Shown: piece by piece, positions 14,631 through 64,000 of the stretch | Position numbering within the stretch: position 1 is the stretch's first letter | Layout of the letters: every line of letters starts with the position of its first letter | Source of the DNA: Nemertoderma westbladi | Taxonomy: Eukaryota > Animalia > Xenacoelomorpha | Reading direction: 5' to 3' | Assembly (NCBI GenBank): GCA_032718475.1 | Contig: JAUCBJ010008230.1 | Coordinates: forward strand, 62,001 to 126,000 | DNA length: 64,000 bases | Notes under the pieces: generated by a model | Told to the model about the DNA's origin: nothing | Seen by the model: only the letters and a program-made list of their open reading frames with translations | The model's database searches: none | Program-made: the position numbers and the translations under genes

Positions 14631-14666
14631 TCAACAGTCAACAAGGGAATACTTACCGGCGGACCC

Positions 14667-22693: not shown

Positions 22694-24283
22694 CCCTATT
22701 ACCACTGGGGGGGGGGGCCGAATCGGCCCCTTCCTAGTTTTTAGTTGCTGTAACTATGCACCCACATTACGTACCGGCCCAATTTTTTGTGAGAATTAGT
22801 CAAATTTAATGCCGCATCTTTTGCAAAAAACGCCGTTGCAATTGGATTTCTACTTTTCGATGTGGGTGCCACCTCAAAATTTGGTCTCCAGCACCAAATT
22901 TTTTGAAATTTTCGAATTTTACAAAGTCATTCGTGATTTAGTAATTATTTGTGTTTGGGCTATTTTTATTTATTTTCATTGGTTTGGATCACTCTAATGC
23001 TCTATACAAGTATGTAAGTGTAGTGGTACGTCATTTTTGGAGCACCAAATTTAGGGCGTGGCACTTTAAAATTTCAAAATTACTTTATTCGGAAAATTTA
23101 CTAAAGTTCTGATTTCGAAGCATTTTTATTGGTTTTCTGGAGCGCTGAATCGATTAAAAGTAGTATAGAAGCCTGAAGACTTAGTGGTTCGCCATTTTTG
23201 GTGCACTAAAATTAGGGTGTGGCACTTCAAATTTTGAAAAATACGAGATTCGGAAAATACACTGAAGTTTTGATTTGCAAAGCATTTTTATAGGTTTTCT
23301 GGAGCGCTGAATCGATTGAAAGTAATATAGAAGCCTGAAGACTTAGTGGTTCGCCATTTTTGGTGCACCAAAATTAGGGCGTGGCACTTCAAATTTTGAA
23401 AAATACGAGATTCGAAAAATTCACTAAAGTTTTGATTTTAAATTAATTTTATAGGTTTTCTGGAGCGCTGAATCGATTGAAAGTAATATAGAACCCTGAA
23501 GACTTAGTGGTTCGCCATTTTCGGTGCACCAAAATTAGGGCGTGGCACTTCAAATTTTCAAAATTACTTTATTCGGAAAAAACACTAAAGTTTTGATTTC
23601 AAAAAATGGCTAACTTCTAAATCTTCAGGCTTTTCTATATTACTTTCAATCGATTCAGCGGTCTGGAAAACCTATATAAATTCGTTAAAATGTCAATTTC
23701 GGTTTATTTTCCGAATCTCGTATTTTTCAAAATTTGAAGTGCCACGCCCTAATTTTGGTGCACCAAAAATGGCTAACCACTCAGTCTTCAGGCTTCTATA
23801 TTACTTTCAATCGATTCAGCGGCCCAGAAAACCCATAAAGATGCGTTGAAATAAAAAAATTAGGGGCATTTTCTGAATATCTAATTTTTCAAAATTTGAA
23901 GTGCCACGCCCACTTCTTATGTGCACGAAAAATAGCATCCACTTCAATTTTTGGAAGTGGAATATAATCACATTCGATTCAGCGTCTTGAAAAACCTACT
24001 AAATCTAGCCAACACTGCCACACTATTAGTTTTTAGAAAACGAAAAATTTTGTAATTTTGTCCTGGGACTACTTTTATTTTTCATCAAAATTATGAGTCC
24101 CTGCTTATGAAATTTTAACTTTTTAAGGTTTGGTAGTGTTCATCTATAGTTGTTTCACCAACAGCCCAAATTTTGTAGGATTTCATTGGACGACTACAAA
24201 AATATAGTGGGTGGGCCGAATCGCCCCCCCCCCCCCCCCCCCCCAGTGCTGCTAATGGTCAAAACACCCCAGTGGTAATAGGA
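22694..24283. mobile_element. Non-autonomous piggyBac-like foldback element (1590 bp)
   Basis: TTAA at 22690-22693 and 24284-24287; TIR CCCTATTACCACTGGGG / CCCCAGTGGTAATAGGA (terminal mismatch); subterminal GGGCCGAATCG motif at both ends; no transposase; satellite phase resumes exactly. Confidence 0.9.
23020..24000. repeat. Internal ~162-bp repeats of the piggyBac-like element, direct then inverted about ~23600
   Basis: GACTTAGTGGTTCGCC at 23178, 23340 and 23501; reverse-complement units (GAAGTGCCACGCCC) at ~23736 and ~23898. Confidence 0.85.
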
Positions 24284-27200: not shown

Positions 27201-30200
27201 TTTGATTGCGTCGGAACACCCCTTTTTTGAGGCTCTCAGAGGGAAGAGATAAGTAGCCTATCTAACTGTTAATATTGTTGTGTTCTAGAATATTTATTAT
27301 AGTTTCATCGTATTGCCAAAGCGGCTGGAGCCGAAGTTAATATGTGATACAATAATTCACCTCAAATTTCTCAGCTAATTCATGAATATAATGAGTATTA
27401 CAGCCATGTCAAAATCCTTGAGGTTTTTCAGCAATAATTTATCAAAATATCCTCAGATTTTTTTCAAAAACCACCTCGATTTTCATATTTATAACTTCTA
27501 ACCCACTCCACGAGATAGAGAATCTTAAACAAAAGTCATAAGAACAGGTAACACTTACATTTATAGAAGTAATCATCTGTTATTTGCTTTGTCTTTCCCC
27601 AGGAGATGGATGAATTTTGATTGCGTCGGAACACCCCCTTTCTGAGGCTCTCAGAGTGGAGAGATAAGTAGCCTATCTCCCTGTTAATATTGTTGTGTTC
27701 TAGAATATTTATTTATTATTATTATTATTTGCTTCGTGTTTCCACAGGAGATTGATGAAATTTGATTGCGTCGGAACACCCCCTTTTTGAGGTTCTCAGA
27801 GTGAAGAGATAAGTAGCCTATCTCCCTGTTAATATTGTTGTGTTCTAGAATAATTATTATAGTTTCATCGTATTGCCAAAGCGGCTGGAGCCGAAGTTAA
27901 TATGTAATGCAATAATTCACCTCAAATATCTCAGCTAGTTCATGAATATAATGAGTATTAAATCCTTGTCAAAATCCTTGGTGTTTTTCAGCAATAATTT
28001 ATTAAAATCTCCTCTGATTTTTTACAAAAAACGACATCGATTTTCATATTCATGACTTCTAACCCACTCCAAGAGATAGACAATCTTAAATGAAAGTCAA
28101 AAGAGCAGGTAACCCTTACATTTATAGAAGTAATCAGCTGTTCTTTGCTTCGTCTTTCCCCTGGAGATGGATGAATTTTGATTGCGTCGGAACACCCCCT
28201 TTTTGAGGCTCTCAGAGGGAAGAGATAAGTAGCCTATCTCCCTGATAATATTGTTGTGTTCTAGAATATTTATTATAGTTTCATCGCATTGCCAAAGCGG
28301 CTGGAGCCGAAGTTAATATGTGATACAATAATTCACCTCAAATTTCTCAGCTAATTCATGAATATAATGAGTATTACAGCCATGTCAAAATCCTTGAGGT
28401 TTTTCAGCAATAATTTATCAAAATATCCTCAGATTTTTTTCAAAAACCACCTCGATTTTCATATTTATAACTTCTAACCCAATCCACGAGATAGAGAATC
28501 TTAAACGAAAGTCATAAGAACAGGTAACACTATCATTTATAGAAGTAATCAGCTGTTATTTGCTTCGTCTTTCCACAGGAGATGGATGAAATTTGATTGC
28601 GTCGGAACACCCCTTTTTTGAGGCTCTCAGAGGGAAGAGATAAGTAGCCTATCTAACTGTTAATATTGTTGTGTTCTAGAATATTTATTATAGTTTCATC
28701 GTATTGCCAAAGCGGCTGGAGCCGAAGTTAATATGTGATACAATAATTCACCTCAAATTTCTCAGCTAATTCATGAATATAATGAGTATTACAGCCATGT
28801 CAAAATCCTTGAGGTTTTTCAGCAATAATTATTTATCAAAATATCCTCAGATTTTTTTCAAAAACCACCTCGATTTTCATATTTATAACTTCTAACCCAC
28901 TCCACGAGATAGAGAATCTTAAACAAAAGTCATAAGAACAGGTAACACTTACATTTATAGAAGTAATCATCTGTTATTTGCTTTGTCTTTCCCCAGGAGA
29001 TGGATGAATTTTGATTGCGTCGGAACACCCCCTTTCTGAGGCTCTCAGAGTGGAGAGATAAGTAGCCTATCTCCCTGTTAATATTGTTGTGTTCTAGAAT
29101 ATTTATTTATTATTATTATTATTTGCTTCGTGTTTCCACAGGAGATTGATGAAATTTGATTGCGTCGGAACACCCCCTTTTTGAGGTTCTCAGAGTGAAG
29201 AGATAAGTAGCCTATCTCCCTGTTAATATTGTTGTGTTCTAGAATAATTATTATAGTTTCATCGTATTGCCAAAGCGGCTGGAGCCGAAGTTAATATGTA
29301 ATGCAATAATTCACCTCAAATATCTCAGCTAGTTCATGAATATAATGAGTATTAAATCCTTGTCAAAATCCTTGGTGTTTTTCAGCAATAATTTATTAAA
29401 ATCTCCTCTGATTTTTTACAAAAAACGACATCGATTTTCATATTCATGACTTCTAACCCACTCCAAGAGATAGACAATCTTAAATGAAAGTCAAAAGAGC
29501 AGGTAACCCTTACATTTATAGAAGTAATCAGCTGTTCTTTGCTTCGTCTTTCCCCTGGAGATGGATGAATTTTGATTGCGTCGGTACACCCCCTTTTTGA
29601 GGCTCTCAGAGTGAAGAGATAAGTAGCCTATCTCCCTGTTAATATTGTTGTGTTCTAGAATATTTATTATAGTTTCATCGTATTGCCAAAGCGGCTGGAG
29701 CCGAAGTTAATATGTGATACAATAATTCACCTCAAATTTCTCAGCTAATTCATGAATATAATGAGTATTAAAGCCATGTCAAAATCCTTGAGGTTTTTCA
29801 GCAATAATTTATCAAAATATCCTCTGATTTTTGTCAAAAACCACATCGATTTTCATATTTATAACTTCTAACCCAATCCACGAGATAGAGAATCTTAAAC
29901 GAAAGTCATAAGAACAAGTAACACTTTCATTTATAGAAGTAATCAGATGTTATTTGCTTCGTCTTTCCCCAGGAGATGGATGAATTTTGATTGCGTCGGA
30001 ACACCCCCTTTTTGAGGCTCTCAGAGGGAAGAGATAAGTAGCCTATCTCCCTGTTAATATTGTTGTGTTCTAGAATAATTATTATAGTTTCATCGTATTG
30101 CCAAAGCGGCTGGAGCCGAAGTTAATATGTGATACAATAATTCACCTCAAATTTCTCAGCTATTTCATGAATATAATGAGTATTAAAGCCATGTCAAAAT

Positions 30201-33200
30201 CCTTGGGGATTTTCAGCAATAATTTATCAAAATATCCTCTGATTTTTTTTCAAAAAGCACAACAATTTTCATATTTATAACTTCTAACCCCATCCACAAG
30301 ACAGAGAATCTTAAACGAAAGTCATAAGAACAGGTAACACTTTTATTTATAGAAGTAATCAGCTGTTATTTGCTTCGTCTTTCCACAGGAGATGGATGAA
30401 ATTTGATTGCGTCGGAACACCCCCTTTTTGAGGCTCTCAGAGGTAAGAGATAAGTAGCATATCTCCCTGTTAATATTGTTGTGTTCTAGAATAATTATTA
30501 TAGTTTCATCGTATTGCCAAAGCGGCTGGAGTCTAAGTTAATATGTGATACAATAATTCACCTCAAATTTCTCAGCTATTTCATGAATATAATGAGTATT
30601 AAATCCTTGTCAAAATCCTAGGGGGTTTTTCAGCAATAATTTATCAAAATATCCTCTGATTTTTTTTCAAAAACCACATCGATTTTCATATTTATAACTT
30701 CTAACCCAATCCACGAGATAGAGAATCTTAAACGAAAGTCACAAAAACAGGTAGCACTTTCATTTATAGAAGTAATCAGCTGTTATTTGCTTCGTCTTTC
30801 CACAGGAGATGGATGAAATTTGATTGCGTCGGAACACCCCCTTTTTGAGGCTCTCAGAGGGAAGAGATAAGTAGCCTATCTCCCTGTTAATATTGTTGTG
30901 TTCTAGAATAATTATTATAGTTTCATCGTATTGCCAAAGCGGCTGGAGCCGAAGTTAATATGTGATACAATAATTCACCTCAAATTTCTCAGCTATTTCA
31001 TGAACATAATGAGTATTAAAGCCATGTCAAAATCGTTGGGGATTTTCAGCAATAATTTATCAAAATATCTTCTGATTTTTTTCAAAAACCACATCGATTT
31101 TCATATTCATGACTTCTAACCCACTCCAAGAGATAGACAATCTTAAATGAAAGTCAAAAGAGCAGGTAACCCTTACATTTATAGAAGTAATCAGCTGTTC
31201 TTTGCTTCGTCTTTCCCCTGGAGATGGATGAATTTTGATTGCGTCGGAACACCCCATTTTTGAGGCTCTCAGAGGGAAGAGATAAGTAGCCTATCTCCCT
31301 GATAATATTGTTGTGTTCTAGAATATTTATTATAGTTTCATCGTATTGCCAAAGCGGCTGGAGCCGAAGTTAATATGTGATACAATAATTCACCTCAAAT
31401 TTCTCAGCTAATTCATGAATATAATGAGTATTACAGCCATGTCAAAATCCTTGAGGTTTTTCAGCAATAATTTATCAAAATATCCTCAGATTTTTTTCAA
31501 AAACCACCTCGATTTTCATATTTATAACTTCTAACCCACTCCACGAGATAGAGAATCTTAAACAAAAGTCATAAGAACAGGTAACACTTACATTTATAGA
31601 AGTAATCATCTGTTATTTGCTTTGTCTTTCCCCAGGAGATGGATGAATTTTGATTGCGTCGGAACACCCCCTTTCTGAGGCTCTCAGAGTGGAGAGATAA
31701 GTAGCCTATCTCCCTGTTAATATTGTTGTGTTCTAGAATATTTATTTATTATTATTATTATTTGCTTCGTGTTTCCACAGGAGATTGATGAAATTTGATT
31801 GCGTCGGAACACCCCCTTTTTGAGGTTCTCAGAGTGAAGAGATAAGTAGCCTATCTCCCTGTTAATATTGTTGTGTTCTAGAATAATTATTATAGTTTCA
31901 TCGTATTGCCAAAGCGGCTGGAGCCGAAGTTAATATGTAATGCAATAATTCACCTCAAATATCTCAGCTAGTTCATGAATATAATGAGTATTAAATCCTT
32001 GTCAAAATCCTTGGTGTTTTTCAGCAATAATTTATTAAAATCTCCTCTGATTTTTTACAAAAAACGACATCGATTTTCATATTCATGACTTCTAACCCAC
32101 TCCAAGAGATAGACAATCTTAAATGAAAGTCAAAAGAGCAGGTAACCCTTACATTTATAGAAGTAATCAGCTGTTCTTTGCTTCGTCTTTCCCCTGGAGA
32201 TGGATGAATTTTGATTGCGTCGGTACACCCCCTTTTTGAGGCTCTCAGAGTGAAGAGATAAGTAGCCTATCTCCCTGTTAATATTGTTGTGTTCTAGAAT
32301 ATTTATTATAGTTTCATCGTATTGCCAAAGCGGCTGGAGCCGAAGTTAATATGTGATACAATAATTCACCTCAAATTTCTCAGCTAATTCATGAATATAA
32401 TGAGTATTAAAGCCATGTCAAAATCCTTGAGGTTTTTCAGCAATAATTTATCAAAATATCCTCTGATTTTTGTCAAAAACCACATCGATTTTCATATTTA
32501 TAACTTCTAACCCAATCCACGAGATAGAGAATCTTAAACGAAAGTCATAAGAACAGGTAACACTTTCATTTATAGAAGTAATCAGATGTTATTTGCTTCG
32601 TCTTTCCACAGGAGATGGATGAAATTTGATTGCGTCGGAACACCCCCTTTTTGAGGCTCTCAGAGGGAAGAGATAAGTAGCCTATCTCCCTGTTAATATT
32701 GTTGTGTTCTAGAATAATTATTATAGTTTCATCGTATTGCCAAAGCGGCTGGAGCCGAAGTTAATATGTGATACAATAATTCACCTCAAATTTCTCAGCT
32801 ATTTCATGAATATAATGAGTATTAAAGCCATGTCAAAATCCTTGAGGTTTTTCAGCAATAATTTATCAAAATATCCTCTGATTTTTGTCAAAAACCACAT
32901 CGATTTTCATATTTATAACTTCTAACCCAATCCACGAGATAGAGAATCTTAAACGAAAGTCATAAGAACAGGTAACACTTTCATTTATAGAAGTAATCAG
33001 ATGTTATTTGCTTCGTCTTTCCACAGGAGATGGATGAAATTTGATTGCGTCGGAACACCCCCTTTTTGAGGCTCTCAGAGGGAAGAGATAAGTAGCCTAT
33101 CTCCCTGTTAATATTGTTGTGTTCTAGAATAATTATTATAGTTTCATCGTATTGCCAAAGCGGCTGGAGCCGAAGTTAATATGTGATACAATAATTCACC

Positions 33201-35031
33201 TCAAATTTCTCAGCTATTTCATGAATATAATGAGTATTAAAGCCATGTCAAAATCCTTGGGGATTTTCAGCAATAATTTATCAAAATATCCTCTGATTTT
33301 TTTTCAAAAACCACAACAATTTTCATATTTATAACTTCTAACCCCATCCACGAGACAGAGAATCTTAAACGAAAGTCATAAGAACAGGTAACACTTTTAT
33401 TTATAGAAGTAATCAGCTGTTATTTGCTTCGTCTTTCCACAGGAGATGGATGAAATTTGATTGCGTCGGAACTCCCCCTTTTTGAGGCTCTCAGAGGGAA
33501 GAGATAAGTAGCCTATCTCCCTGTTAATATTGTTGTGTTCTAGAATAATTATTATAGTTTCATCGTATTGCCAAAGCGGCTGGAGCCGAAGTTAATATGT
33601 GATACAATAATTCACCTCAAATTTCTCAGCTATTTCATGAATATAATGAGTATTAAAGCCATGTCAAAATCGTTGGGGATTTTCAGCAATAATTTATCAA
33701 CATATCTTCTGATTTTTTTTCAAAAACCACATCGATTTTCATATTTATAACTTCTAACCCACTCCACGAGATAGAGAATCTTAAACGAAATTAATATGTG
33801 ATACAATAATTAACCTCAAATATCTTAGCTATTTCATGAACATAATGAAGTATTAAGGCCATGTCAAAATCCTTGGGGTTTTTCAGCAATAATTTATCAA
33901 AATATCCTCTGATTTTTTTCAAAAACCACATCGATTGTCATATTTATAACTTCTAACCCACTCCACGAGATAGAGAATCTTAAACGAAAGTCATAAGAAC
34001 AGGTAACACTTTCATTTATAGAAGTAATCAGCTGTTCTTTGCTTCGTCTTTCCCCTGGAGATGGATGAATTTTGATTGCGTCGGAACACCCCCTTTTTGA
34101 GGCTCTCAGAGTGAAGAGATAAGTAGCCTATCTCCCTGTTAATATTGTTGTGTTCTAGAATATTTTTTATAGTTTCATCGTATTGCCAAAGCGGCTGGAG
34201 CCGAAGTTAATATGTGATACAATAATTCACCTCAAATTTCTCAGCTAATTCATGAATATAATGAGTATTAAAGCCATGTCAAAATCCTTGAGGTTTTTCA
34301 GCAATAATTTATCAAAATATTCTCTGATTTTTTTCAAAAACCACATCGATTTTCATATTTATAACTTCTAACCCAATCCACGAGATAGAGAATCTTAAAC
34401 GAAAGTCATAAGAACAGGTAACACTTTCATTTATAGAAGTAATCAGCTGTTATTTGCTTCGTCTTTCCACAGGAGATGGATGAAATTTGATTGCGTCGGA
34501 ACACCCCCTTTTTGAGGCTCTCAGAGGGAAGAGATAAGTAGCCTATCTCCCAGTTAATATTGTTGTGTTCTAGAATATTTATTATAGTTTCATCGTATTG
34601 ACAAAGCGGCTGGAGCCGAAGTTAATATGTGATACAATAATTCACCTCAAAATTCTCAGCTAATTCATGAATATAATGAGTATTAAAGCCATGTCAAAAT
34701 CCTTGAGGTTTTTCAGCAATAATTTATCAAAATATTCTCTGATTTTTTTCAAAAACCACATCGATTTTCATATTTATAACTTCTAACCCAATCCACGAGA
34801 TAGAGAATCTTAAACGAAAGTCATAAGAACAGGTAACACTTTCATTTACAGAAGTAATCAGCTGTTATTTGCTTCGTCTTTCCACAGGAGATGGATGAAA
34901 TTTGATTGCGTCAGAACACCCCCTTTTTGAGGCTCTCAGAGGGAAGAGATAAGTAGCCTATCTCCCTGTTAATATTTTTCTGTTGTAGAATATTTATTAT
35001 AGTTTCATCGTATTGTTAATGTGGCTGGAGT
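24284..35031. repeat. ~415-bp satellite array with a ~1390-bp higher-order repeat
   Basis: Monomer spacing 415-416; short-monomer junctions near 26313, 27703, 29100 and 31740. Confidence 0.97.
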
Positions 35032-35501
35032 TGTGACGGGATCCACGAAGGATCCCGATTTATCCGTTTGTCAATCTACGCGTCCCCGCCGTGTGTGAAA
35101 GGTAAAAGAGTTTGCATTGTTCGTCGTAACAATAGTATATGGAAGGCGGGAAACAGTGATTAAGTCCTGGTACTTCCCTAGCTAACCTAACTAACACTAA
35201 ATGGCACACTGACTAAATGATACATTGGTAACTGCTATTATATTGCACGGGTTGGCCTTGTTACAGTACCTAGTCGATGCTTCCCCCTTGATTGGCTAAT
35301 ATCCCTGTTGGTGCCCTTTGGAGTGTTTCCCTTTACTCCTGCTATTCTCTCTCGGTCAGGGGTATGGCTCCTGACCCTTATTGTGTGTTTCTCCTTCCCA
35401 CTTTGTTGGGGTGGCACGAGATTGGGTAACCAACCTCGTGGCCCCCAATATTGCTTAACGGTTTTCATTGTGGGCTGTTAGTGGAATTGAATACGCTAAC
35501 A
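35032..35501 (-). repeat. 3' LTR of element C (470 bp)
   Basis: TGTGAC...TAACA on +; aligns with 47237-47743; adjacent CTCCCCCC (35502-35509) is the purine tract on the minus strand. Confidence 0.93.
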
Positions 35502-36369
35502 CTCCCCCCATGCTATCTTCCCGGTAAGAAGATAGCATCCACCTAAAGTGCGCTACAATTCCGCTAGATCCCGATCTAATATCGGGCGTGGGGTGGTATT
35601 ATTTCTTCTCGGAGCCGGCTTTCCAGGCCGCTCCCTATGGGTATGATAATGCTACCTGGCATCCCATGTCGGGCCGATCGTGCGCTCCTCTCACATGACT
35701 TTTGTTTCCCCAACACTTTCGCCACTTCAACTCCACTCTGTTCTCACCCTGACTCTCCTCTACTTCTCTTCTCTTTCACTCTAGCTCTCAGACTTCCCTG
35801 TCCCTTACTCAGCCTCTTATCTTCCCCCCCCCCCACACTTGAATTGTATCCGCACTCTCTCCGCACTCCGCACTATTACTCCGTCTTTCGATCCCCCTCT
35901 GGCTAACCTACTCATCTCTGACGAGTCTCCTGTGCCGTCGCACTCAGGAAATGTGAAGTCGTCTAGTGCCTCGTTCGTCATAGTCAGTCCTCCCCGGTCC
36001 AGTAGCTAATTGGAAAAGGTTATACGACTATAGTACTTACTTCGAATGTATATTCTCGTAGATTACTGATTACTACGTACGTACATACAAATTGCACTTA
36101 TTTGATTATTTAGATTACTTGAATTTGTACTTAATAGTTCGCACGTCTCATGTGGCGCCTTCCAGGCGTACCACATCAAAGTCTCAGTTTTTCCCTCCTG
36201 GCTTTGGGAACCACCTCAAGTCTTTCCCTTTGCCGTCCTCCTCCCTGGGTTGTTTCTTGGTCACCACCGCTCCTCTGGGATCCGCTTTCTGTCTTCGGAC
36301 TTTCGCCGCCACCTCCTTACTGATTCCGGTCGTTGGTTCCTTGGGCGCTGGTGTTATCAGTGCCCGATA

Positions 36370-38747
36370 TCACTTCACGGGTGGCCCCTCCGAGTGGCCC
36401 TGTTGTCTCCCCCTGGTGGCGTCCCATAAGATCATCTTCATTGCCCGCGGCACGTGCTCTGCCAAGAAATCCCTAAACTCCCCTCGGTTCTGTGGCGTCC
36501 ACCTGTCCAAATACCTTTGTGTATTTATTACCCCGGCATACGACGCCGCCGTTGCTACCTCTTGATAGGTAAACGGTAACCTCCTCTTTATGATCTCCAA
36601 GTGAGCCTCCTGATTGATTAGGAAGAAACCCCACTTAAACTCCTGGGCCTTCATGCGTTGCCGCGTCATGGCCCCGACGTCGGCCCATTCTTCGAAGATC
36701 CTGAACTTCTCCTCATCGTCCATCCAGTCGCACTGGCGTCCGTAGTGTCCCCGAAAGTTACACTTTGGACATCGGTTAGGCAACCGCGGACACGCCCCCA
36801 TCCTGTGGCTCGACTCGCGGCAGTAGAGACAACTAGTCCCTTTCTGGAACCGGTACAAGCAGCTCCTTTCCTGGTGGGTCTGTCTCCCACAGTAGTCACA
36901 GCCAAGCACCAATGTCTCCCGCCCCACGTTGTCTTTCGTCCCAAGCGATCTCCGCGGTCTGTGGAGTCGCTGATAGGCGAACTTCTGGACGTTAGTGTCC
37001 CTGTCTACGTCGATCTCCTCACCCCTCCCGGGCATCGTCTCCCCGAATACTACCCGTGGCGCCGTCCCCGGTTGCTCGCCCAGCCTAATAGCGCTCCCCG
37101 CAAAATCCATCGCCGGCTCCTCGTGCACCCAGGCCCGCTTGCCGGGTTTGTCCCGAAGGCTCTCGCCCCACTGGCCGTCACCACCCTCCTGCCAACCCAG
37201 TCCGTGCCCGAGTAGCCTATCCTCCCGATGGGCGGCATCTCTCCGAACTCGTCGTTGTCTTCGTCCTCCTCTCGCAGTGGTTCCAACCCCGGTATCCTGG
37301 TGGACCCACTATGTCCCTTCCCGCCTTGGTTCATGCCCGTAGCTCTCCATTCCTCTAGCTCCCCTAGCTTCCTTTGCGGTTGATCGCCCTCGGCGCCCGC
37401 TGGTATTGGCATCGCTTGCAATCCCGACGTCGACTGTTTCGGTGATCCCACCGTCCACCCCAGTTCTTTCTCTAGAGACTCCCCCAAACTCCCTGACGAA
37501 GTCCAACGAAGTTTGTCTAAGGCCGTTTGTTCCTCAAAGCCGTAGCTCTGCGCCCTAGCTTCCTCCTCCCTCTCTTCTGCTTCTCTCCTCTCCCATCTAG
37601 CGATTTCTTCCAATCGCTTTGCTTCTCATCTGTCCGCTTCTAGCTGCTTCCACCTCTGATATGGCGTATCTACCTCCCTGTCTACCAGATGTCGGTGGTT
37701 GTAGTACACTGACTCGCCCTTCAGCCCCGGGTGGTCTACCAGACCCTCAAAAGCCGTTTTAAAGGCTCTTCTGTAGCTCAGGGTTGATCCCGATAGCAGG
37801 AATGCCGTTGGTTCCTTCCCAATGACGATAGTCATGAATAGGTTTAGTAAACCTATCATTATCCAGTCCTCCTGCAGGATATATTGCTTCTGATATACCT
37901 TTATCGCTCCTCTCCGGAATTGATACACCTCTTGTTTCCCTGGCCTTGCTCCCCACTTCAGCGAGTTTGCTAACTCTGCTCCGTACTCTTCTCTGAACTT
38001 ACCCCAGTCCATCGGTTTGTGACACACGAGCCCCAATAGCTGGCCCATCGCCACCGCTCCGCACTGGCCTGTGCTCTCCACTGCTCCCAACCTGTCCGGC
38101 GCTGTCATAGCCATGAAGACCGTCTGCATGTCCAGAAGGTTGGGGGTGTCCGGACCGATGATTCTCTCCGCGTCATCGCGAATCGCCGATCCCACCTTGT
38201 TCGTCGAGTTCTCTCTTACCAGGACTTGCACCGCTTTTGGCAACCGGTTTAATTTCGGCCCGTCCTTGTTCCCATACGTTCCTAGGTCGAATAGGAAAAT
38301 GTCCCCATTTGGCGCGGCCAAATGTAGGAGTATGGTCCTGGCCGACCCCGCTGATCCTCGTCTCGAACACTCCTCGTCTTCCACGGTTCCCTCGTCGTCT
38401 AGGATCATATATCCTCCCCTGCTGACGGACTCTACGAACCTCTTCCAATCTTTCTTCGGCAATTCCCTCGCGTACTTCGGAATCCCAAACTTCGCCTCGT
38501 CTCCCTTTACCACATAGTGGAAATGCTGGAAGATCGCGTTGTCCAGCGACGGCATCCCGTAGGTGCTGACCAGCCGCTGTTCGTGCACTTTCCTGAAATG
38601 TTCTTGTAGCGCTCGTGCTGCGTAACCCCTCTCCAGCCGTTAGTAGTATCCTCTCGTCTTCTCTTCCGGATGCCTCTTGGTGAAGTCCACCAGTATCTCC
38701 TTTCCTCCTTGCTCCGCCTTTCTCTTTCTGATCAGTTTTCCCGCCAT
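36370..38747 (-). pseudogene. Accessory ORF of element C: DEDDy-like 3'-5' exonuclease, acidic/coiled linker, three CCHC knuckles, C-terminal domain
   Basis: ATG at 38747 is in frame with 38588..37626 and 37613..37050 (stops at ~38641 and ~37627); one frameshift leads into 37128..36370. Motifs: ILDDEG, LLHLAAPNGDIFLFDL, LPKAVQVLV..NKVGSAIRDD, LLDMQ, QKQYILQED; CDYCGRQTHQERSC, CLYCRESSHRMGAC, CPKCNFRGHYGRQC. Confidence 0.75.
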
Positions 38748-39239
38748 TCCGAACACTCTCACTTGCTCACCTGTAAGGTGGTGCCTTACCAAGGCGCAAT
38801 ACAGATGAGTGATGTAGCTAAGATGGTCTGTACGGTCCGATAATGGCCTACTCCTTATCTAACTACGCCTTATAGCCTAAATTCCTACTATTTAATTTTA
38901 AAGCTATTAAATTTACCCTGATTTGCAGTTTCTGTCAGTTACTTTAATTATGTTCCAGAATAATTTCCCTACTGTTACCATAATTTGTAACTTTTAGCCC
39001 TATTCTTATTCTATTCTATTTTTTAATTTAATTTAATCCTACTACTTACTGTTGCCTATGGATTATTCTACTTTCTAATCCACATTCTGGCCTACTCTGT
39101 GGGCCTGTGCAGTACAACAGTATGCGTCGCGTGGCCACACAACTTATCCAGCTGTACTCATATGCCCCCTCTCGCTACTAATTACTGACTGATATCTATA
39201 CTATATATACCCTTCTACCTCTATCTCTTACTAACTAGT

Positions 39240-40065
39240 ACTACGTACTTTCTTACTAACTTCTAACTCTCTCTAACTAACGGTACTATGTACCCTCTAA
39301 CTCTTACTCTCTCACTCTCTAACTAGCGGTACTACGTACCCTCTAACTCTTACTCTCTCTCTCTCTAACTAACTAGCGGTACTATGTACCCTCTAACTCT
39401 TACTCTCTACTCTCTCTCTCTCTAACTAACTAACGGTACTACGTACCCTCTAACTCTTCACTAACTAACGGTACTACGTACCCTCTTACTACTCCACTAA
39501 CTAACGGTACTACGTACCCTCTTACTACTCCACTAACTAATGGTACTATGTACCCTCTTACTACTCCACTAACTAATGGTACTACGTACCCTCTTACTAC
39601 TCTGACTCTACTAACGGTACTACGTACCCTCTTACTACTCCACTAACTAACGGTACTACGTACCCTCTTACTACTCTAACTCTACTAACCACCGGTACTA
39701 CGTACCCTCTTACTACTCTGACTCTACTAACCACCGGTACTACGTACCCTCTTAACTAACTAACTAACTAACTAACTAACTCTCTCTCTTGGTACTACGT
39801 GCCTCCTAACTAACTAACTAACTAACTAACTCTCGCTCTCGGTACAACGTACCTCCTAACTAACTAACTAACTAACTAACTAACTCTCTCTCTTGGTACT
39901 ACGTACCTCCTAACTAACTAACTAACTAACTCTTGCTCTCGGTACTACGTAACTCCTAACTAACTAACTAACTAACTCTCTCTCTTGGTACTACGTACCT
40001 CCTAACTAACTAACTAACTAACTCTCTCTCTCGGTACTACATACCTCCTAACTAACAAACTAACT
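39240..40065. repeat. Minisatellite of ~18 GGTACTACGTACC hairpin units with (ACTA)n/CT-rich spacers
   Basis: The unit recurs every ~34-57 bp from 39282 to 40045. Confidence 0.9.
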
Positions 40066-40284
40066 CTTTTTATTTATTTTTATTTTTATGTGTGGGAAGG
40101 GCGTCTCGCCCTCAATCCCACCCCCCTCAGTCCAAAACTTGGACGACTAAACTTCTCTCCATCTCCAACCAAAGGTGCCCCTTCTAATAGACAGCATTTC
40201 CCTACAGTTCTCCTGTAGGTTTTTCTGTCCTTTGCACCTATCTTGCCACCTATCCGCACTTCTACCGATCGGACTCTTCCGTCC

Positions 40285-43182
40285 TCAAGAGTTCATTACT
40301 AGAATCCCGTCATCATTAAGTTGTGGTGACAGCGTGATCAGCTCGCTGTCCCGTCGAAGATGCTGTTGTTTACTGACGTGTTCCACCTCGTCGCCATAGT
40401 TCTTCCGGTGTTCATAGCGGATGACTGCTTTGCCCACTCCTTCAAGATCTGTGGTTGTCCTGATCTTCCTGCCTTTGCCAACTCCCGCGAGGAAATTCCC
40501 GAAGGCTCTCCAGTACGCCACTAATTTCTTGGTCTTATACCAACTAGAGCTGTAGCTGAGGAGTTTATCCGTCGGGTTATCGCACAGTTCTTCTGGTATT
40601 GGTTGCACGTCCCTTATCTCCCTCACCATCTGGGAGTATATCTCTTCTCCCTCTGAATCTCCTTCTTCTCCCTCTGATACTGCCTCTCCTGAGCCCGGGT
40701 CTACCTTTCTCATCGGCGGCCAGGCCTCCTTGTCGCTCAGAAATTGCGGCCCGTGTTGCCACAATTCTTCCTTCTTTAAGAAAGTGTGGCGTGCCACGCC
40801 CCTCGATAACAAGTCCGCAGGGTTCTCGTCCGTAGGGCAGTAGTGCCACCTTTCTAGATCTGTCGTCGCCCTTATTTCGTCCACTCTATTTGCGACGAAT
40901 ATAGGGTAGCGCGTTTTCTCGTTATGTAGCCAGCCAAGCACTACCATGGAATCCGTCCAGTAGTGTGTCTCCACTATGTTGGGAATAGCGTCCATTATGT
41001 AGGCTGTGGCCCTAACTCCTAGCCTTGCCGCTGTCAACTCTAGTTTGGGAACCGATGCCGAATCTGGTGGCGTTGACTTTGCCTTGCTGAAGGCAAGTCT
41101 GGGCTTATGAGGCCCCTCTCGTTGTACTAAATAGAGTGCGGCTCCGTATGCCTCTAGTGACGCATCGGAGAACATGTGCAGATCCAGGTTCGTCATGTCC
41201 CCATCCGGGAAATACACTCGCGGCATGCTGTATGTTCCCATCTTCTCCAAACCTTCTGTCCACTTACACCACTGTTTCCTGATCTCGTCTGGTACCTCTA
41301 TATCCCACTCATCCTTCAGTTTGTATACTCTCTTGAGTATCTGTTTCCCCGTGACTAGTAGTGGGGATGCTAGGCCTAGGGGATCGTATATTCTTGCTAT
41401 GTATGATACATAGCCTCTCTTTGTGTGGATGTCTGCGCCCTCCTGGCTCAGCTGGTACTTCAGTTCATCTGTCTCTCTGTTCCACACGATTCCCAGTGCC
41501 TTCTGTTGAGACTCTGTCCTCTTGTTCACCATGTCCTGCCCTTTGGCTGTTGTGGGATTATCCATGGTGGATTCTGGTCTCTCGTCCTCTATCGCCCTGA
41601 TAAATTCCTCCGAACTGGATTGGAATTTGGTTAGGTTAAAGCCGGATCCCTTAAGGATGTCGCGAACCTCGTGCCCTGTGTCCAGTATCTCCTTAACCGT
41701 ATTTCCAGACTCCATTCCGTCGTCTATGTAGAAGCCACGTCGAATCATATCGACGGCCCTAGTGCTGTATCTATCCTCCTTTCCCTTTACTGTGTCTCTT
41801 ACTGCCATAGTCGTCGTAAATGAAGACGACTTGGCTCCCATGTTCTGTACTATCATCTTGTATGTCGGTATAATCGACGGTTCTTCATCGCCGTTGTACC
41901 ATAAGAAGCGTTGGCTATCGCTATCTTCTTCCGTTACACGGACTTGGTTGAACATGCCTTCTATATCACAGGTGAAGGCGTGTTTCCCATTCCTGAATCT
42001 AAGTAGGACCTCGATCCCCGAGTTGTATATGTTGGGACCCTCTAGCAGATAGTCGTTTAGGCATTTTCCATTGGTCTTTGCCGACGCATCCACTACCATC
42101 CGCAGTTTACCTTTCTTTGGATCTAAAGCCACGTGGAGTGGCAGGTAATATGTCCTGTCCGTGTTTGGTTTGTCGACCGGTAGCTCCACGGCCCATCCTT
42201 TCTCGATGTACTTCCTAATCGTTCTGTGGATGTACTCATTCTTCTCGGGGCTCCGTTTTAGTGTCTGCTTCAACTTACGAAGCCTCGTGAGTACCATCCC
42301 TCTATTATCGGGTAGCGGTAGCTTCGGTAGCTTCCATACCATCCCTATGGTATACCGCCCCTCATCACACCTCATAGACTCCTCTACGCTCTGCAGAGCC
42401 TGCTTGTCTTCTACCGAGGTTCTGATCCCAGTCTCCTTTAATCCTTCAAAATCCTGTCTGAGCAGTCTCTTAAGCTGCTCCTCCGCTCTCTCATCACCCA
42501 TTTCCTGCATAGTTCCCGCGAACATGCATCCTGATGTCTCCGACATCCTAAATGGTATCTTACTCTTGATTGGGCCGCTCAGTGTCCACCCGAATGGTGT
42601 TAAAATCGCCACCGGGTCACACTGCCTGTCTTCGCCGAAGACCGTTTGCATTCTCTCGTGGGCCGTCGGGCAGTCCATTCCTACTATGATGGATACTTTC
42701 CTGACGTCCACCTCTGGGATTGAGAAGTCGATATCATCCAGGAATCTATACTGTTTGACCTCGATGTTGGTTGGCTGCCTGGCATTGATATTTATTGATT
42801 CAATCACTTGGATGGGGTCGATGGTCGCGCCGTAGTCGCATCCCGGTGCCACCGCTGCAATTGCGCACCGTCCGGTTCTCATCTCCAGGATCTCATCTTT
42901 GCTAGAGATGGTTGTTACCGCCATTCTACTTGGCCTCGTTCTCAATCCTATTTCTTTGGCCACCCAATCCTCGATTAATGTGAAGGCAGCTCCACTATCA
43001 ACCAGCATCAGTGGGGTTACTGATCGATTGCCTTCTCCAATCACTCGCACTGGCACTACCCCAAGTAGCACCGTCCCTCTCTTTTTCGCCCCTACTGTGC
43101 TCGTTGCCATCGTTTGGCCTTTACTTTGACCAAACTTAATCGGCGTTTCCTCGCATTGCCTAGCTCTATGTCCACTCATCAC
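40285..43182 (-). pseudogene. pol: Element C pol: protease, RT, RNase H; ends at the integrase deletion
   Basis: LVDSGA, YYLPLH, LLEGPN, DIEGMFNQV, RFLW, FYIDD (41719-41730), YDPLG, LHMFSDAS, PKLEL, YWTDS, NPADLLSRG. Confidence 0.95.
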
Positions 43183-44045
43183 ACATCGCGAGCAGATCTC
43201 ATTTCTTGCCGCGTATATCTTCCCTGGGTAATGCTTGCCAGTACCTGCAGTTCATGGTCTGATGGAGCGCATTTGTATGTAGCTGGCATTTGCTCTTTGG
43301 GTCGTAGCCTATCGTATGCATTGCGTATCGTGGTTGCATTTGTACCAAAGTCCCTACTATTCTTATTGTTTGGGTTCGGCCTACTGGCAGTCCCCTGCGT
43401 CGCTGCGTATGGCAGTGATTGCCTGAGCTTTGGCAATGCGTCTGATGTGTTGTGTTCTGGTTTCGGTTTATGGTTATCTATTCTTGGTCCCTTTCCCAGG
43501 CTATCCTCGCTATAGACTGGGTCGGTTATTAATTCAGCTTCGTAATTTAAGAAGCTCGACATTTCTTCTAGACCCGGTTCCGCGCCCTTCCTATCTCGAG
43601 TGGAGAAAGCGACTTTCCTCCACTTGTTGCGCAGCCATATCGGTAGTGCCTGCGCTATCGTGGTTATGTTGTTGGACGCGTTGAGCTCGTATGGCGCGTC
43701 TAGCGTTTTCAGTACGATTAGCGCCTTTTCGACCTTGTTCGCGAATGTCTTAATGCTAACGGGATTGTCCTGTAGGCCACCTGATGTTATGCCTCTCAGG
43801 GTTTGCTGGATGATCTTGGCTGGGTGCCCGTATTCCCTGTCCAGTGCCCGCCATGCCATCGTCAAGCCGCCCTCTATGCCCTGGTATTGCCTCACGATGT
43901 CGTATGCTGGACCTCCTGTGTATACTTGCAGATACTTTAGGCACTCCGCCTGCGTCAAGTTCTTTGTTAGTATTTCGTTGCTATACATGCGCCGAAACTG
44001 TAGGTATTCTTCCGGCCTGCTCCCATCGAATTTGAATGGTTCCAC
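43179..44045 (-). pseudogene. gag: Element C Gag core (DUF1759-like); knuckle region frameshifted
   Basis: FDGSRPEEYLQF, LKYLQVYTGGPA, LDREYG, LPIWLRNKW; CSRCVMSGHRARQC appears in the pol frame. Confidence 0.88.
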
Positions 44046-47000
44046 GGGTGGTAGTCTATTAACGTGGCCATTCCCATCGCCTGCGCTTCCAATGGGTTTG
44101 ATGGATGTTGTATAGTTTCCCCTGTTAGGTGCGGTCCGTCCGTCCTATTTCCTGCCTTCCTCTGGCTTGGGTATATCATTGGGGGTAGCGGCCCCCTCCA
44201 TATTTCTGTGTCGCATGACCTATTTCCATCCAAGGGTCTCATTGTTCTTGCTCATATCGAGGTATATTTTTGATATTGTGATGGGGGAATGTCACCCTGT
44301 CCCCCCCCCCCCACCGGTATGTTTGGTACTGGGGTTGATGTTAATATATTGGGGCCCATGCACCTATCCGCAATAATTCCCCCCTCCCCTGGGTATATGT
44401 TATGTCCCTGCATGCTGTAGTCATACTGCTGTACTGGTACCGGTATAGGCCTATCAGCTTCTGGCCTACCTGCCGGTATATACTCCGCGAGTTCCAGGTT
44501 TAATCCCGTCGACCGCGCTATCCTATCGCCAACATTATTCCTGTCAGCATGGCCTATGGTATGTGCAGTAAGGCCTACAGTATGTCCTACAGTCTGCATG
44601 TGTCGCTCGGGATCTAAGTTTATTCTTCTTGAATAATCCTCCTCGCGGCTACCATATTCCAGATCGGCAGGTATATCCCGCCGGAGAGCCTCTCTTTGAC
44701 CCCCTCTACTGCTCTCGTCTTTGTACCGGTACATCGTGTACCCCTCTCTCGACGCGTAATGCGCCCCCTCAGGTCGCGTTCCTCCAGGGCGACGGCAATC
44801 TCCCGAAGTTCGACCCTGCTGACTCTCCATCTCCATCTCTACTACCGATGGCACGCTATCCGTTCTCGCTCTCCTGTCGTTCGCGGCGACACTTCTTCTA
44901 TTCTCTTCCCTTCTTTTCTTCGTAGTGCAGTATTCCCGCTCGTGAGATCTCTCGTCGACCTCCCGGTTAAACTCCACTGTTCTTCTTCCCTCTTCTGATC
45001 GGGCTCGACGCTTCGTCCGCCCTCTCGCGACGTCAACCTGCTTCTCTCTGCTCGATCGCACGCCGCTGGGGATACTCGCAATCCCCCTATTACTCTCCGT
45101 CGCCGGGTGTTGCGGTTTACCTATCTCGGCCCGCGCATTATCCGTTGACGCCTGTGGGGCACTCTCTGCCCCCCCCCCCCCCCCTTTTCGCCGCTAACTC
45201 GCTGTTGTGGGGCTCCTGTAGCCCCCCCCCCCCCCCCCACTTGCCACATCTAACTTTGCTATCTCTCACCTCACTGCTATATCCTTCTCTAGTCGACACA
45301 GCAACCCTACTGCGGCTGGGTCTATTCACCCCCGCCTCTCCTTCTACTACTGTGTGGCCTACCAGGCCCTCTACTTCCTGCCTACTAACTACGTGGCCTA
45401 CCAGGCCCCCGCTGGGTTTACCCAACCCAGCCACTCCCTGCCTACTAACTACGTGGCCTGCCAGGCCCTCTCCGGGTTGGCTCAACCCCGCCACTTCCGG
45501 CCTACTAACTGTACGGCCTACCAGGCACTTATCTGCCGGGTTTTACACGCCCGACGTGTTCACGTTAATAGCACCCATATTAGAAACGGAATTATTTTGT
45601 TTGTTCGAAATAAAATAATTTGAATTATTTTGCGCGACTACACCATTTGAATTATTTTGTAAATTCGGGTTTGGATCATTATTTAAATTATTTGGATTAT
45701 TTTGCGTAACTACGTTATTTGAATTATTTCCTACATTAATATTATAATCGTTCGGATTTAAATTTAAATTATTACCACTAGGCAAAATATTTCCTGCAAT
45801 AAAGGTTTGGTTAGTATTATCCAATACGGTACTATTAATATTAACGACGTCTACTGTACCATTATTATTACCCCCACCGCCCGTACGGTCACACCAGTTT
45901 CGGGTCTGTCGTGCGGTCCCTGTAAGTGGGGTATTAATAAATGTATCCACTTGGCTCCCCGAAAACACTAGAGCCAGTCCCGCTCTCAGACGCCCCTATC
46001 CGCGCCAGTTGCAGTTCGTGCGTGCGTCTAATATTGTACTCCATAAGCTCACTTTGGCGTTTTACCAATTCTTTTTGCTCACGCTCCTCTCTTGCCATTC
46101 TCTCCCGAACCTCTCGCGCATTCTGGTCGGCCAATTCCGGCTCTCTCCTAGCTCCCTCCCTTCGCCTCGCCTCACGCTCTTCTTGTTCCTTCCTCCCTAT
46201 TTCATCACACTCCCTAAGGCTTTTCGCGGCCCTTTCGGCCCTCTCTCCAGTTTCTCTAATCATTCTCATTTCCTTCTCTAATAGCATTCTCCCATCCTCT
46301 AACCGTCTCTCTACTTCTCACTGACTTTGCGCTATCAGATCGAGATGGTACGTGGCATTTATCTCTCTCACCCGTCTTCCTTTTACAGAGGATGTAGCAG
46401 ACTTATCGGTTGTGACGGATTCCCTCCGCCTTCCCGATCTACTAACTTTCCCTCTCTTCCCAGAACTTCCTCCGACCGACGAGATCGAATAATCGGGGTT
46501 AACCTCGGATTCGCCCTCCTGCGGCCTTCTCCAACCCACTAATTTTATACCCCGGGCATCGACTAAGTATGGCCCTACGTACACTACGCTAGGTTGCATA
46601 CCCCTACACCGCCATAATTCACACAGTTCCTCGGCAACCCCTCTCGCTCTCGCCTTGGCCAGTTCTCTCTGCCCAAAGCGCATTAAATAACTAAAATGTC
46701 TATCCGACTCACCTAGTCCTGTTGTCAACTTTACCTCATCTATCTTCGCCCCCTGCTTGGCCTCCTTAAGTAGCTTCCGGGTCGCGTTGTAGGCCCGTCG
46801 AAGTCGATCGGAAACCCCGAAGTCCTCGTCGCCGACCTCTCCTCCGTCTCTCCGGGTCCGACGTCGTACCGGCGGCCCCACCGTCGCCGTTTCGGTGGGC
46901 CATCTGTCGCCCTCGGCCTGTGGCTGGCCGGCGACATCGGTACGTTGACCAACGTGTGTCGACTCGTCTCTTTCTCCTTCCGTCTCGCTCTCTCCTTCTC

Positions 47001-47166
47001 TCAACTCGGCTTCCGGCTCCAGACAGCCCCCCTCATCTTGAACTGCCGGATGACCCGTTACCGATGGGTCCGGCGTTGTGGGCCTATACCGTCTGGTCAC
47101 AGCCTCGCGAATCGTTAGGTCTTCGTCTGGGGTCTGTGGTGGCGTCGTCTCACCCAACCAACTCAT
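44046..47166 (-). pseudogene. Fragmented N-terminal Gag region of element C (coiled-coil, Asn-rich and Gly/Arg-rich segments)
   Basis: Chain of same-strand ORFs starting 47166, 46287, 45968, 45494, 45061 and 44242, broken by stops and by frameshifts, some near poly-C runs. First ATG is 70 nt from the 5' LTR. Confidence 0.7.
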
Positions 47167-47236
47167 CTTGTACTTTAGATTGGTGGCTGGTAGTCACTGT
47201 TTAGCTAACTAGGGGCGGCAGCTTGGGTTTAATCAC

Positions 47237-47743
47237 TGTGATGGGATCCACAAAGGATCCCGATTTATCCGTTTGTCAATCTACGCGTCCCCGCCGTGTG
47301 TGAAAGGTAAAAGAGTTTGCGTTGTTCGTCGTATATAATCTCCGGGTATAATAGTATAAATAGAGTGATCGTATAATGAATAAGTGAGTAACAATAGTAT
47401 ATTGAAGGCGGAAAACGGTGATTAAGTCCCGGTACTTCCCTAGCTAACCTAACTGACACTAAATGGATTGGTAACTGCTATTATATTGCACTGGTTGGCC
47501 TTGTTACAGTACCTAGTCGATGCTTCCCCCTGATTGGCTAATATCCCTGTTGGCGCCCTTTGGAGTGTTTCCCTTTACTCCTGCTATTCTCTCTAGGTCA
47601 GGGGTATGGCCCCTGACCCTTATTGTGTGTTTCTCCTTCCCACTTTGTTGGGGTGGCACGAGATTGGGTAACCAACCTCGTGGCCCCCAATATTGCTTAA
47701 CGGTTTACTTTGTGGGCTGTTAGCGGAATTGAATACGCTAACA
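47237..47743 (-). repeat. 5' LTR of element C (507 bp)
   Basis: TGTGAT...TAACA on +; homologous to 35032-35501 with two indels; CCAAT and TATAA on the minus strand. Confidence 0.93.
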
Positions 47744-50700
47744 GGAGTTAAAGTTATTATGTAATGCAATAATTCACCTCAAATATCTCAGTTTTTTCAT
47801 GAACATAATGAAGTATTAAAGCCATGACAAAATCCTTGGGGTTTTTCAGCAATAATAATAATAATAATATCCTCAGATTTTTTACAAAAAACGACATCGA
47901 TTTTCATATTTATAACTTCTAACCCACTCCACGAGATAGAGAATCTTAAATGAAAGTCATAAGAACAGGTAACACTTACATTTATAGAAGTAATGAGCTG
48001 TTATTTGCTTTGTCTTTCCCCAGGAGATGGATGAATTTTGATTGCGTCGGAACACCCCCTTTCTGAGGCTCTCAGAGTGGAGAGATAAGTAGCCTATCTC
48101 CCTGTTAATATTGTTGTGTTCTAGAATATTTATTATAGTTTCATCGTATTGCCAAAGCGGCTGGAGCCAAAGTTAATATGTAATGCAATAATTAACCTCA
48201 AATATCTCAGCTAGTTCATGAATATAATGAGTATTAAATCCTTGTCAAAATCCTTGGTGTTTTTCAGCAATAATTTATTAAAATCTCCTCTGATTTTTTA
48301 CAAAAAACGACATCGATTTTCATATTCATGACTTCTAACCCACTCCAAGAGATAGACCATCTTAAATGAAAGTCAAAAGAGCAGGTAACACTTACATTTA
48401 TAGAAGGTAATCAGCTATTCTTTGCTTCGTCTTTCCCCTGGAGATGGATGTTTTTTTATTGCGTCGGAACACCCCCTTTTTGAGGCTCTCAGATTGAAGA
48501 GATCAGTTAATACTGTTGTGTTCTAGAAAATTTATTATAGTTTCATCGTTTTGCAAAAGCGGCTGGAGCCGAAGATAATATGTGATACAATAATTCACCT
48601 CAAATTTCTCAGCTATTTCATGAATATAATGAGTATTAAAGCTATGTCAAAATCCTTGGAGTTTTTCAGAAATAATTTATCAAAATATCCTCTGATTTTT
48701 TTCAAAAACCACATCGATTTTCATATTTATAACTTCTAACCCACTCCACGAGATAGAGAATCTTAAACGAAAGTCATAAGAACACGTAACACTTTCATTT
48801 ATAGAAGTAATCAGCTGTTCTTTGCTTCGACTTTCCCCAGGAGATGGATGAATTTTGATTGCGTCGGAACACCCCCTTTTTGAGGTTCTCAGAGTGAAGA
48901 GATAAGTAGCCTATCTCCCTGTTAATATTGTTGTGTTCTAGAATAATTATTATAGTTTCATCGTATTGCCAAAGCGGCTGGAGCCGAAGTTAATATGTAA
49001 TGCAATAATTCACCTCAAATATCTCAGCTAGTTCATGAATATAATGAGTATTAAATCCTTGTCAAAATCCTTGGGGATTTTCAGCAATAATTTATCAAAA
49101 TATCATCTGATTTTTTTTCAAAAACCACATCGATTTTCATATTCATGACTTCTAACCCACTCCAAGAGATAGAGAATCTTAAACGAAAGTCATAAGAACA
49201 GGTAACACTTTCATTTATAGAAGTAATCAGCAGTTATTTGCTTCGTCTTTCCACAGGAGATGGATGAAATTTGATTGCGTCTGAACACCCACTCTTTGAG
49301 GCTCTCAGAGGGAAGAGATAAGTAGCCTATCTCCCTGTTAATATTGTTGTGTTCTAGAATATTTATTATAGTTTCATCGTATTGCAAAAGCGGCTGAAGC
49401 CGAAGATAATATGTGATACAATAATTCACATCAAATTTCTCAGCTATTTCATGAATATAATGAGTATTAAAGCTATGTCAAAATCCTTGGGGTTTTTCAG
49501 AAATAATTTATCAAAATATCCTATGATTTTTTTCAAAAACCACATCGATTTTCATATTTATAACTTCTAACCCACTCCACGAGATAGAGAATCTTAAACG
49601 AAAGTCATAAAAACAGGTAACACTTTCATTTATAGAAGTAATCAGCTGTTCTTTGCTTTGTCTTTCCCCAGGATATGGATGAATTTTGATTGCGTCGGAA
49701 CACCCCCTTTTTGAGGCTCTCAGAGTGGACAGATAAGTAGCCTATTTCCCTGTTAATATTTTTCTGTTGTAGAATATTTATTATAGTTTCATCGTATTGC
49801 TAATGTGGCTGGAGTTAAAGTTATTATATAATGCAATAATTCACCTCAAATATCTCAGTTTTTCATGAACATAATGAAGTATTAAAGCCATGTCAAAATC
49901 CTTGGGGATTTTCAGCAATAATTTATCAAAATATCCTATGATTTTTTTTCAAAAACCACATCGATTTTCATATTTATAACTTCTAACCCAATCCACGAGA
50001 TAGAGAATCTTAAACGAAAGTCATAAGAACAGGTAACACTTTCATTTATAGAAGTAATCAGCTGTTATTTGCTTCGTCTTTCCACAGGAGATGGATGAAA
50101 TTTGATTGCGTCGGAACACCCCCTTTTTGAGGCTCTCAGAGTGGACAGATAAGTAGCCTATTTCCCTGTTAATATTTTTCTGTTGTAGAATATTTATTAT
50201 AGTTTCATCGTATTGCTAATGTGGCTGGAGTTAAAGTTATTATGTAATGCAATAATTCACCTCAAATATCTCAGTTTTTCATGAACATAATGAAGTATTA
50301 AAGCCATGTCAAAATCCTTGGGGTTTTTCAGCAATAATTTATCAAAATATCCTCAGATTTTTTACAAAAAACGACATCGATTTTCATATTTATAACTTCT
50401 AACCCACTCCACGAGATAGAGAATCTTAAACGAAAGTCATAAGAACAGGTAACATTTACATTTATAGAAGTAATCAGCTGTTATTTGTTTCGTCTTTCCC
50501 CAGGAGATGGATGAATTTTGATTGCGTCGGAACACCCCCTTTCTGAGGCTCTCAGAGTGGAGAGATAAGTAGCCTATCTCCCTGTTAATATTGTTGTGTT
50601 CTAGAATATTTATTATAGTTTCATCGTATTGCCAAAGCGGCTGGAGCCAAAGTTAATATGTAATGCAATAATTAACCTCAAATATCTCAGTTTTTCATGA

Positions 50701-63873: not shown

Positions 63874-64000
63874 AACTTTGAGGAAGACTTGCGAGCCTAC
63901 CAAACAACGGAAACTAGTGGGTGATGTTTCCAAACGGAATGTTAGAATTCGGACAACACAACGGACGCGAGCACGTCGGCCACCGTATCCAGGTGATAGT

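Follow-up and report, generated by a model that had tools for sequence, protein, structure and literature searches.

We describe a BEL/Pao retrotransposon of Nemertoderma westbladi that carries an extra gene in the env position, between pol and the polypurine tract. This gene is a feature of the whole family and not a one-off capture, and it is under purifying selection across copies. It encodes three CCHC zinc knuckles and a domain that very probably has the DEDDy exonuclease fold. On balance, we think it probable that this is a selected accessory gene whose product is a 3'-5' exonuclease predicted to grip single-stranded RNA and to trim its 3' end on behalf of the element.

The element and its genomic setting

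The element was found in a window of 64,000 nucleotides, most of which is a 415-bp satellite (blocks at 16290-22693, 24284-35030 and 47751-60310). The satellite runs on one strand throughout 16290-60310, and a 1.6-kb break in it at 22694-24283 contains internal repeats, both direct and inverted, of about 260-310 bp. With a length of 12.7 kb, the element lies on the minus strand at 35032-47743 and splits the satellite array; contigs of empty satellite units continue across its insertion site. It is bounded by a 5' LTR of 507 bp (47237-47743) and a 3' LTR of 470 bp (35032-35501), each of which has the form TG...CA. The LTRs match at 435 of 450 ungapped positions (96.7%, K2P 0.034) with three indels, and the identical 5 bases beside their outer ends (47744-47748 and 35027-35031) are a 5-bp target-site duplication. 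The polypurine tract (35502-35509, minus strand) is directly upstream of the 3' LTR. An earlier note on this DNA had described matched LTRs, a target-site duplication and a gene in the env position ahead of the purine tract, and all of these are present.

The gag region (43179-47193, minus strand) is made up of ORF pieces in several frames and includes a DUF1759 domain at 43182-44144 (Pfam E 5.7e-10). The adjoining region at 40285-43251 on the same strand encodes one gag-type knuckle (43194), followed by the pol protease, reverse transcriptase and RNase H, and matches Peptidase_A17 (E 1.1e-40). We assign the element to BEL/Pao because the DUF1759 and Peptidase_A17 matches are both past the Pfam cut-off. 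The other Pfam matches in pol, to Asp_protease_2 (7e-5) and RVT_1 (0.004), are weak. The element has the paired LTRs of 0.2-1.2 kb and the target-site duplication expected of this group, and the domain order protease, reverse transcriptase, RNase H holds in pol as far as RNase H. The pol protein is 37% identical to that of another Pao element in the window.

The window copy lacks the integrase core, as judged from three features: pol breaks off at 40285 after RNase H, the next bases resemble an integrase tail in another frame, and at the deletion junction near 40286 contigs from other copies either stop or diverge. The segment downstream of the junction (40086-40286, minus strand) is probably the C-terminal tail of the integrase. 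This identity is our own reading of a motif like the end of the window's other Pao integrase, and the segment gave no match by Pfam or tblastn. The earlier note had correctly named a BEL/Pao element but overlooked the deletion in its pol. The window copy is a dead relic. In this copy no canonical primer-binding site starting with TGG, which in BEL/Pao would be one for tRNA-Arg or tRNA-Gly, follows the 5' LTR (47215-47236, minus strand); if true of intact copies, this would bear on the idea that the extra gene trims primers. Between pol and the extra gene is a spacer with tandem repeats in units of 36-50 bp (39214-40065, Tandem Repeats Finder); the number of units varies among copies and they are possibly regulatory.

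The second BEL/Pao element in the window is a distant relative at 6800-16450 on the plus strand, in which the integrase is present and broken by stops. Its pol has an internal repeat spaced 207 bp near 13957-14348. A further copy of this second family is found at 60937-64000 (plus strand), about 88% identical to 6800-9796 and cut by the end of the window. Several retrotransposons lie in or beside the satellite array, which may reflect heterochromatin or a target preference. The extra gene gave no tblastn match to the second element at 6800-16450.

An extra gene with zinc knuckles and a putative exonuclease domain

The extra gene is on the minus strand and starts after approximately 1.3 kb of repeat-bearing spacer downstream of pol. 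It extends from an ATG at 38747 to 36370, a span of 792.7 codons, and in the window copy it is broken by two stops (38642-38640 and 37628-37626) and one frameshift. The coordinates, ORF pieces, breaks and length of about 790 codons given in the earlier note hold. The first piece (38640-38747) comprises the 35 residues from the ATG to the first stop. The second (37626-38639) has 337 open residues (38639-37629) and contains the whole putative DEDDy-type 3'-5' exonuclease domain at 37821-38462, which was placed by our own profile, alignment register, the ExoIII pattern and synonymous excess. The third (37150-37625) is a charged, probably helical stretch followed by a low-complexity linker, with no Pfam match. 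The frame of the second stop stays open to about 37050, and the shift to the last frame occurs within about 37050-37300. Translation from a later ATG, at 38555, would leave the nuclease domain entire, and an AG 24 bases ahead of the ATG at 38747 is a candidate splice acceptor.

The fourth piece (36370-37149) consists of linker, three zinc knuckles and a C-terminal region of approximately 120 residues, the last of which (36370-36730, minus strand) matches no family. The knuckles (36900-36859, 36831-36790 and 36771-36730, together 36730-36900) are exact copies of the CX2CX4HX4C pattern, as the earlier note had stated. In 3000 shuffles a single knuckle arose 11 times, and no shuffle had two or more in one frame. 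The Pfam match of this piece to zf-CCHC_5 (E 0.004) is below the cut-off. We rejected an env identity for the gene because the highest 19-residue hydropathy of the protein is 1.47, at the ExoIII helix, and no strongly hydrophobic segment that could be a membrane anchor or signal is present.

The putative catalytic residues are Asp 38399 and Glu 38393 in ExoI, Asp 38174 in ExoII, and Tyr 37883 and Glu 37871 in ExoIII (minus strand). The motifs from which the earlier note had proposed the exonuclease (ILDDEG, LLHLA..IFLFDL, LP..V.VLV, KVGSAIRDD, LLDMQ and QKQYILQED) are present. The D-x-E of ExoI and the Asp of ExoII align to invariant columns with both HMMER and MAFFT. In ExoIII the Tyr is in register; Y-x3-D itself is not found, as Glu occupies the site that is Asp in 43 of 43 comparison proteins, and an Asp follows one residue later. 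The deviation is this Glu at the fourth acidic site and not the spacing, which is the standard Y-x3 and which the earlier note had called atypical. Because Glu replaces Asp at this site, the putative catalysis may be weak.

We built a profile from 53 bacterial PF01612 DEDDy proteins, these being the ones that passed an ExoI motif filter among 70 loci screened. This profile scores the exonuclease piece at 7.1 bits, a value that 2 of 5000 shuffles reach, and of 53 ORFs in the window the piece ranks first; the corresponding P of 1.7e-4 would lose its significance in a search of a whole library. Along the match ExoI, the two strands after it, ExoII and the next Asp follow one another in order. Beyond the profile match is the ExoIII pattern, which is found in 0.13% of 100,000 shuffles (p 0.0013) and in 16 of 17 WRN-like proteins. 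The context of ExoII is common to 16 of the 17 WRN-like proteins and 2 of 36 other comparison proteins; both patterns were picked after the alignment had been seen. A profile of the RNase D subgroup gives -1.6 bits, which 530 of 5000 shuffles reach. In the MAFFT alignment 8 of 14 conserved columns are in register, and 15 of 384 shuffles match at least 8 (p about 0.04), which is a weak control. The hhalign probabilities were 0.2% and 18%. A language-model search placed a DNA_pol_A_exo1 cluster second (0.78), which we treat as a lead.

Library and homologue searches did not recover the domain. There was no Pfam match up to E 10, PF01612 included, and searches of NCBIfam, PHROGs and PDB sequences were empty or at chance level. 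Word-index homologue searches were also empty, both for the exonuclease piece (against proteins of 185-590 and 591-2000 aa) and for the knuckle piece (against proteins of 318-2000 aa). A search of 1.8 billion representatives gave two matches, both to proteins with internal repeats that look to have inflated the scores, and we rejected them as true homologues. No HRDC domain, which follows the exonuclease in the RNase D/Rrp6 subgroup, was matched by Pfam in a protein that is too diverged for a firm negative.

Structure prediction was carried out with and without an alignment as guide. The unguided single-sequence model has a pLDDT of 31 and no fold match, and sets strands at the three expected beta motifs with low confidence. 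A model guided by 43 proteins has a pLDDT of 74 and a pTM of 0.72; all its listed PDB matches are DEDD-type exonuclease domains, and a viral structure library gave a similar result. The guided model is circular. An alignment of three sequences was dropped, as ExoI was misaligned in it. The PDB matches of the guided model place trypanosome RNase D at ranks 1-5 and Egalitarian at 6, 9 and 10, whereas in the guiding profile's own ranking they stand at 36-37 and 39-40 of 45. This contrast of ranks escapes the circularity, and we take the ranking as a hint because the E-values are close. Thus the exonuclease proposed in the earlier note is likely in its fold; searches of Pfam, of PDB sequences and with the unguided structure gave no DnaQ-fold match, and such a match appears only with the circular, alignment-guided model.

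Presence and selection across copies

Five sequencing runs, from three studies of one organism, contain this sequence; contigs of four of the runs were aligned to the whole element, and in each run they cover 30 of 30 element bins. In two samples 951 and 1407 contigs cover 571 bases of the exonuclease region at 80-100% identity. The summed depth of the gene relative to pol, a rough measure, is 0.82, 0.58 and 0.78 in three runs. Among the best 15 of 160 joints none skips the whole extra gene and some remove parts of it. Some copies have internal deletions at 36199-37581 that remove the knuckle part, where joints skip 534 and 1368 bases. No internal LTR pair was found around the gene, and no contig was found that spans both pol and the gene. 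No relatives of the exonuclease, knuckle or pol pieces turned up when contigs were scanned for them.

At the second stop the other copies differ from the window copy in nearly all the depth. Within the frameshift interval 9, 14 and 12 contigs differ in length from it, and these make up 64%, 20% and 52% of the depth at the listed placement (among the best 12 of 95). The first stop is not among the best 40 of 1687 differences. Intact copies probably make one fused nuclease-knuckle protein, which may start at the ATG at 38747; the frameshift difference covers part of the depth, and the first stop falls outside the differences listed.

In the exonuclease region 40 of the 68 differences were listed, and 27 of these 40 are synonymous, where random placement of the same changes would give 11.3 (p≈5e-5). 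Equally 27 of the 40 are at third codon positions, the crude omega from them is 0.19, and none of them is a nonsense change or alters a putative catalytic residue. Listed variants that occur in only part of the depth are synonymous in 23 of 27 cases. Where nearly all other copies differ from the window copy the figure is 4 of 13, as expected if the window copy has decayed. The frame of the gene is the best of six, with 27 synonymous changes against 3, 4, 6, 8 and 21 in the others. The antisense frame, which shares third positions, accounts for the 21; it has 3 stops in the window copy and was rejected as the source of the signal. The presence of the gene in other copies and its non-neutral evolution, both of which the earlier note had set as tests of its proposal, are thus borne out.

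Function and comparison with known systems

A separate RNA, either spliced or internally initiated, would be translated into the extra protein. We propose a separate RNA because 1.3 kb of repeats lies between pol and the gene. The fused protein would comprise, in order, the nuclease, the charged helical stretch, the long linker, the knuckles and the C-terminal region. The knuckles would hold single-stranded RNA and the nuclease would remove 3' nucleotides, by analogy with trypanosome RNase D. Selection at the level of the element suggests that this activity would aid the spread of the element. Of the possible substrates we rank marks of host silencing or decay first, with a modest probability, namely small guide RNAs or the 3' tails put onto transcripts of the element; its own RNA or primer ranks second and is rather doubtful as a substrate. 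More tentatively, the family may encode an RNA exonuclease guided by its knuckles, convergent with the RNase D of trypanosomes, that destroys host piRNA or siRNA guides or strips decay tails. If this is true, a suppressor role would help to explain the very high copy number of the family. Uridylation is reported to restrict LINE-1 elements (PMC6191937), and the removal of tails is proposed here as an analogy because the portions of that paper drawn on hold no passage on LTR elements.

The gene might instead be a host gene fragment or a nested element that was captured by one copy and has decayed neutrally. The three breaks in the window copy would fit with this, as would the failure of any contig to join pol and the gene, but hundreds of diverged contigs cover the gene at a depth comparable to pol, the synonymous excess is strong and no LTR pair encloses the gene. 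This explanation is largely refuted and we give it almost no weight. We also considered a real and selected gene with an N-terminal domain other than a DEDDy exonuclease, in which the order of motifs would be coincidental. Every blind library and homologue search fails, the register control gives p of about 0.04, and the hypothesis came from the same sequence. Coincidence is nevertheless quite unlikely, given that 2 of 5000 shuffles equal the profile score and that the separate ExoIII pattern has p 0.0013; the language-model lead names the same clan unprompted and the unguided model, at low confidence, has strands where they are expected.

Two further alternatives accept the fold. The protein could be an RNA-binding adaptor with little or no catalysis that packages, transports or shields element RNA, in the manner of Egalitarian or EXD1. 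The Glu in place of the invariant ExoIII Asp and the rise of Egalitarian in the guided fold search are in favour of an adaptor, and EXD1 and Maelstrom are described in passages of PMC5408684 as inactive DEDD derivatives that have kept RNA binding. We find it fairly unlikely, since an acidic residue stands at each of the four sites, ExoIII retains its Tyr, none of these residues is altered in the 40 listed of 68 differences, and the ORF3 proteins of rotifer elements, according to the same passages, also have Asp to Glu (DEED) in otherwise intact motifs (PMC5408684). The other alternative is a DNA exonuclease that trims or proofreads cDNA ends in reverse transcription, like WRN or the proofreading domains of polymerases. 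Its ExoII context is that of the WRN-like bacterial subgroup, and CCHC knuckles can bind single-stranded DNA as well. The gene is separate from the reverse transcriptase and not fused to it, the closest architecture and the top fold matches are RNA enzymes, and to our knowledge LTR elements generally replicate without a trimming or proofreading exonuclease; this role is therefore very unlikely. We continue to favour an RNA-trimming accessory protein.

Whether animal retrotransposons encode enzymes that act against small-RNA silencing is, in our framing, an open question. The predicted RNA-binding module formed by the knuckles points to a concrete assay, and the nuclease domain is testable as it stands since it lies in one unbroken frame in the window copy.

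WRN-exo, EXD2, Mut-7 (Nibbler), EXD1 and Egalitarian are all among the guided fold matches, and a WRN-like bacterial subgroup has the ExoII and ExoIII context of the extra gene. The five named proteins are products of host genes, they have no sequence-level match to the extra gene and no subfamily can be assigned to it.

The fusion of an exonuclease to knuckles has a cellular precedent, which the earlier note did not name. Trypanosoma brucei RNase D (TbRND) contains a DEDD domain and four C-terminal CCHC fingers, and passages of PMC7797062 report that RNA binding is due mostly to the fingers, which also increase the cleavage of U-rich 3' ends. As in the extra gene a DEDD exonuclease is followed by a C-terminal CCHC array, and TbRND supplies the top five matches of the guided model. 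TbRND is a cellular protein with four fingers on a 28-residue linker (PMC7797062), whereas here three knuckles are approximately 300 residues from the nuclease, and its identity to the extra protein is 15-17%. The common architecture is probably convergent.

The element shares with the Belpaoviridae its LTRs, DUF1759 gag, Pao-type pol, purine tract and a third gene after pol (PMC8742986 and passages of PMC3118150). The third genes described for this family are only env-like and its stated length is 4.2-10 kb (PMC8742986), whereas the extra gene is not env-like and the element reaches 12.7 kb although it lacks the integrase core. The word exonuclease is absent from the main text of PMC3118150, as far as it was covered. 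No exonuclease gene in BEL/Pao was found in the titles and the starts of abstracts that the literature searches listed, and subscription journals or Repbase entries could contain one; this agrees with the earlier note, which named none.

The closest parallels are in bdelloid rotifers, where the earlier note had pointed to DEDDy extra ORFs in gypsy-type elements. Such ORFs are published: a DEDDy ORF3 is present in the LTR elements Juno and Vesta, and in Athena/Terminon elements (PMC5408684, PMC6431247, PMC6338049, each drawn on in part). In these sources, as here, a DEDDy-type gene lies downstream of pol in the env position, has no membrane domain, has one of its four acidic residues changed from Asp to Glu and is of putative function. 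The rotifer elements are gypsy-like or Penelope-like, unlike the BEL/Pao element described here, and the motif is DEED in the rotifers and DEDE here (PMC5408684). The passages used describe no CCHC knuckle array in the rotifer ORF3, compared to three knuckles here, and report no significant departure from neutrality in its intragenomic evolution (PMC5408684), in contrast to the clear synonymous excess that we observe.

A DEDDy accessory gene on a retroelement was thus already known; relative to the sources searched, the BEL/Pao host group, the fusion to three knuckles and the evidence of selection are new. The extra gene adds a third group of retroelements with a DEDDy accessory gene, together with evidence of purifying selection. 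The repeated, apparently independent recruitment of the same class of nuclease to the env position suggests a requirement that retroelements share in their life cycles.
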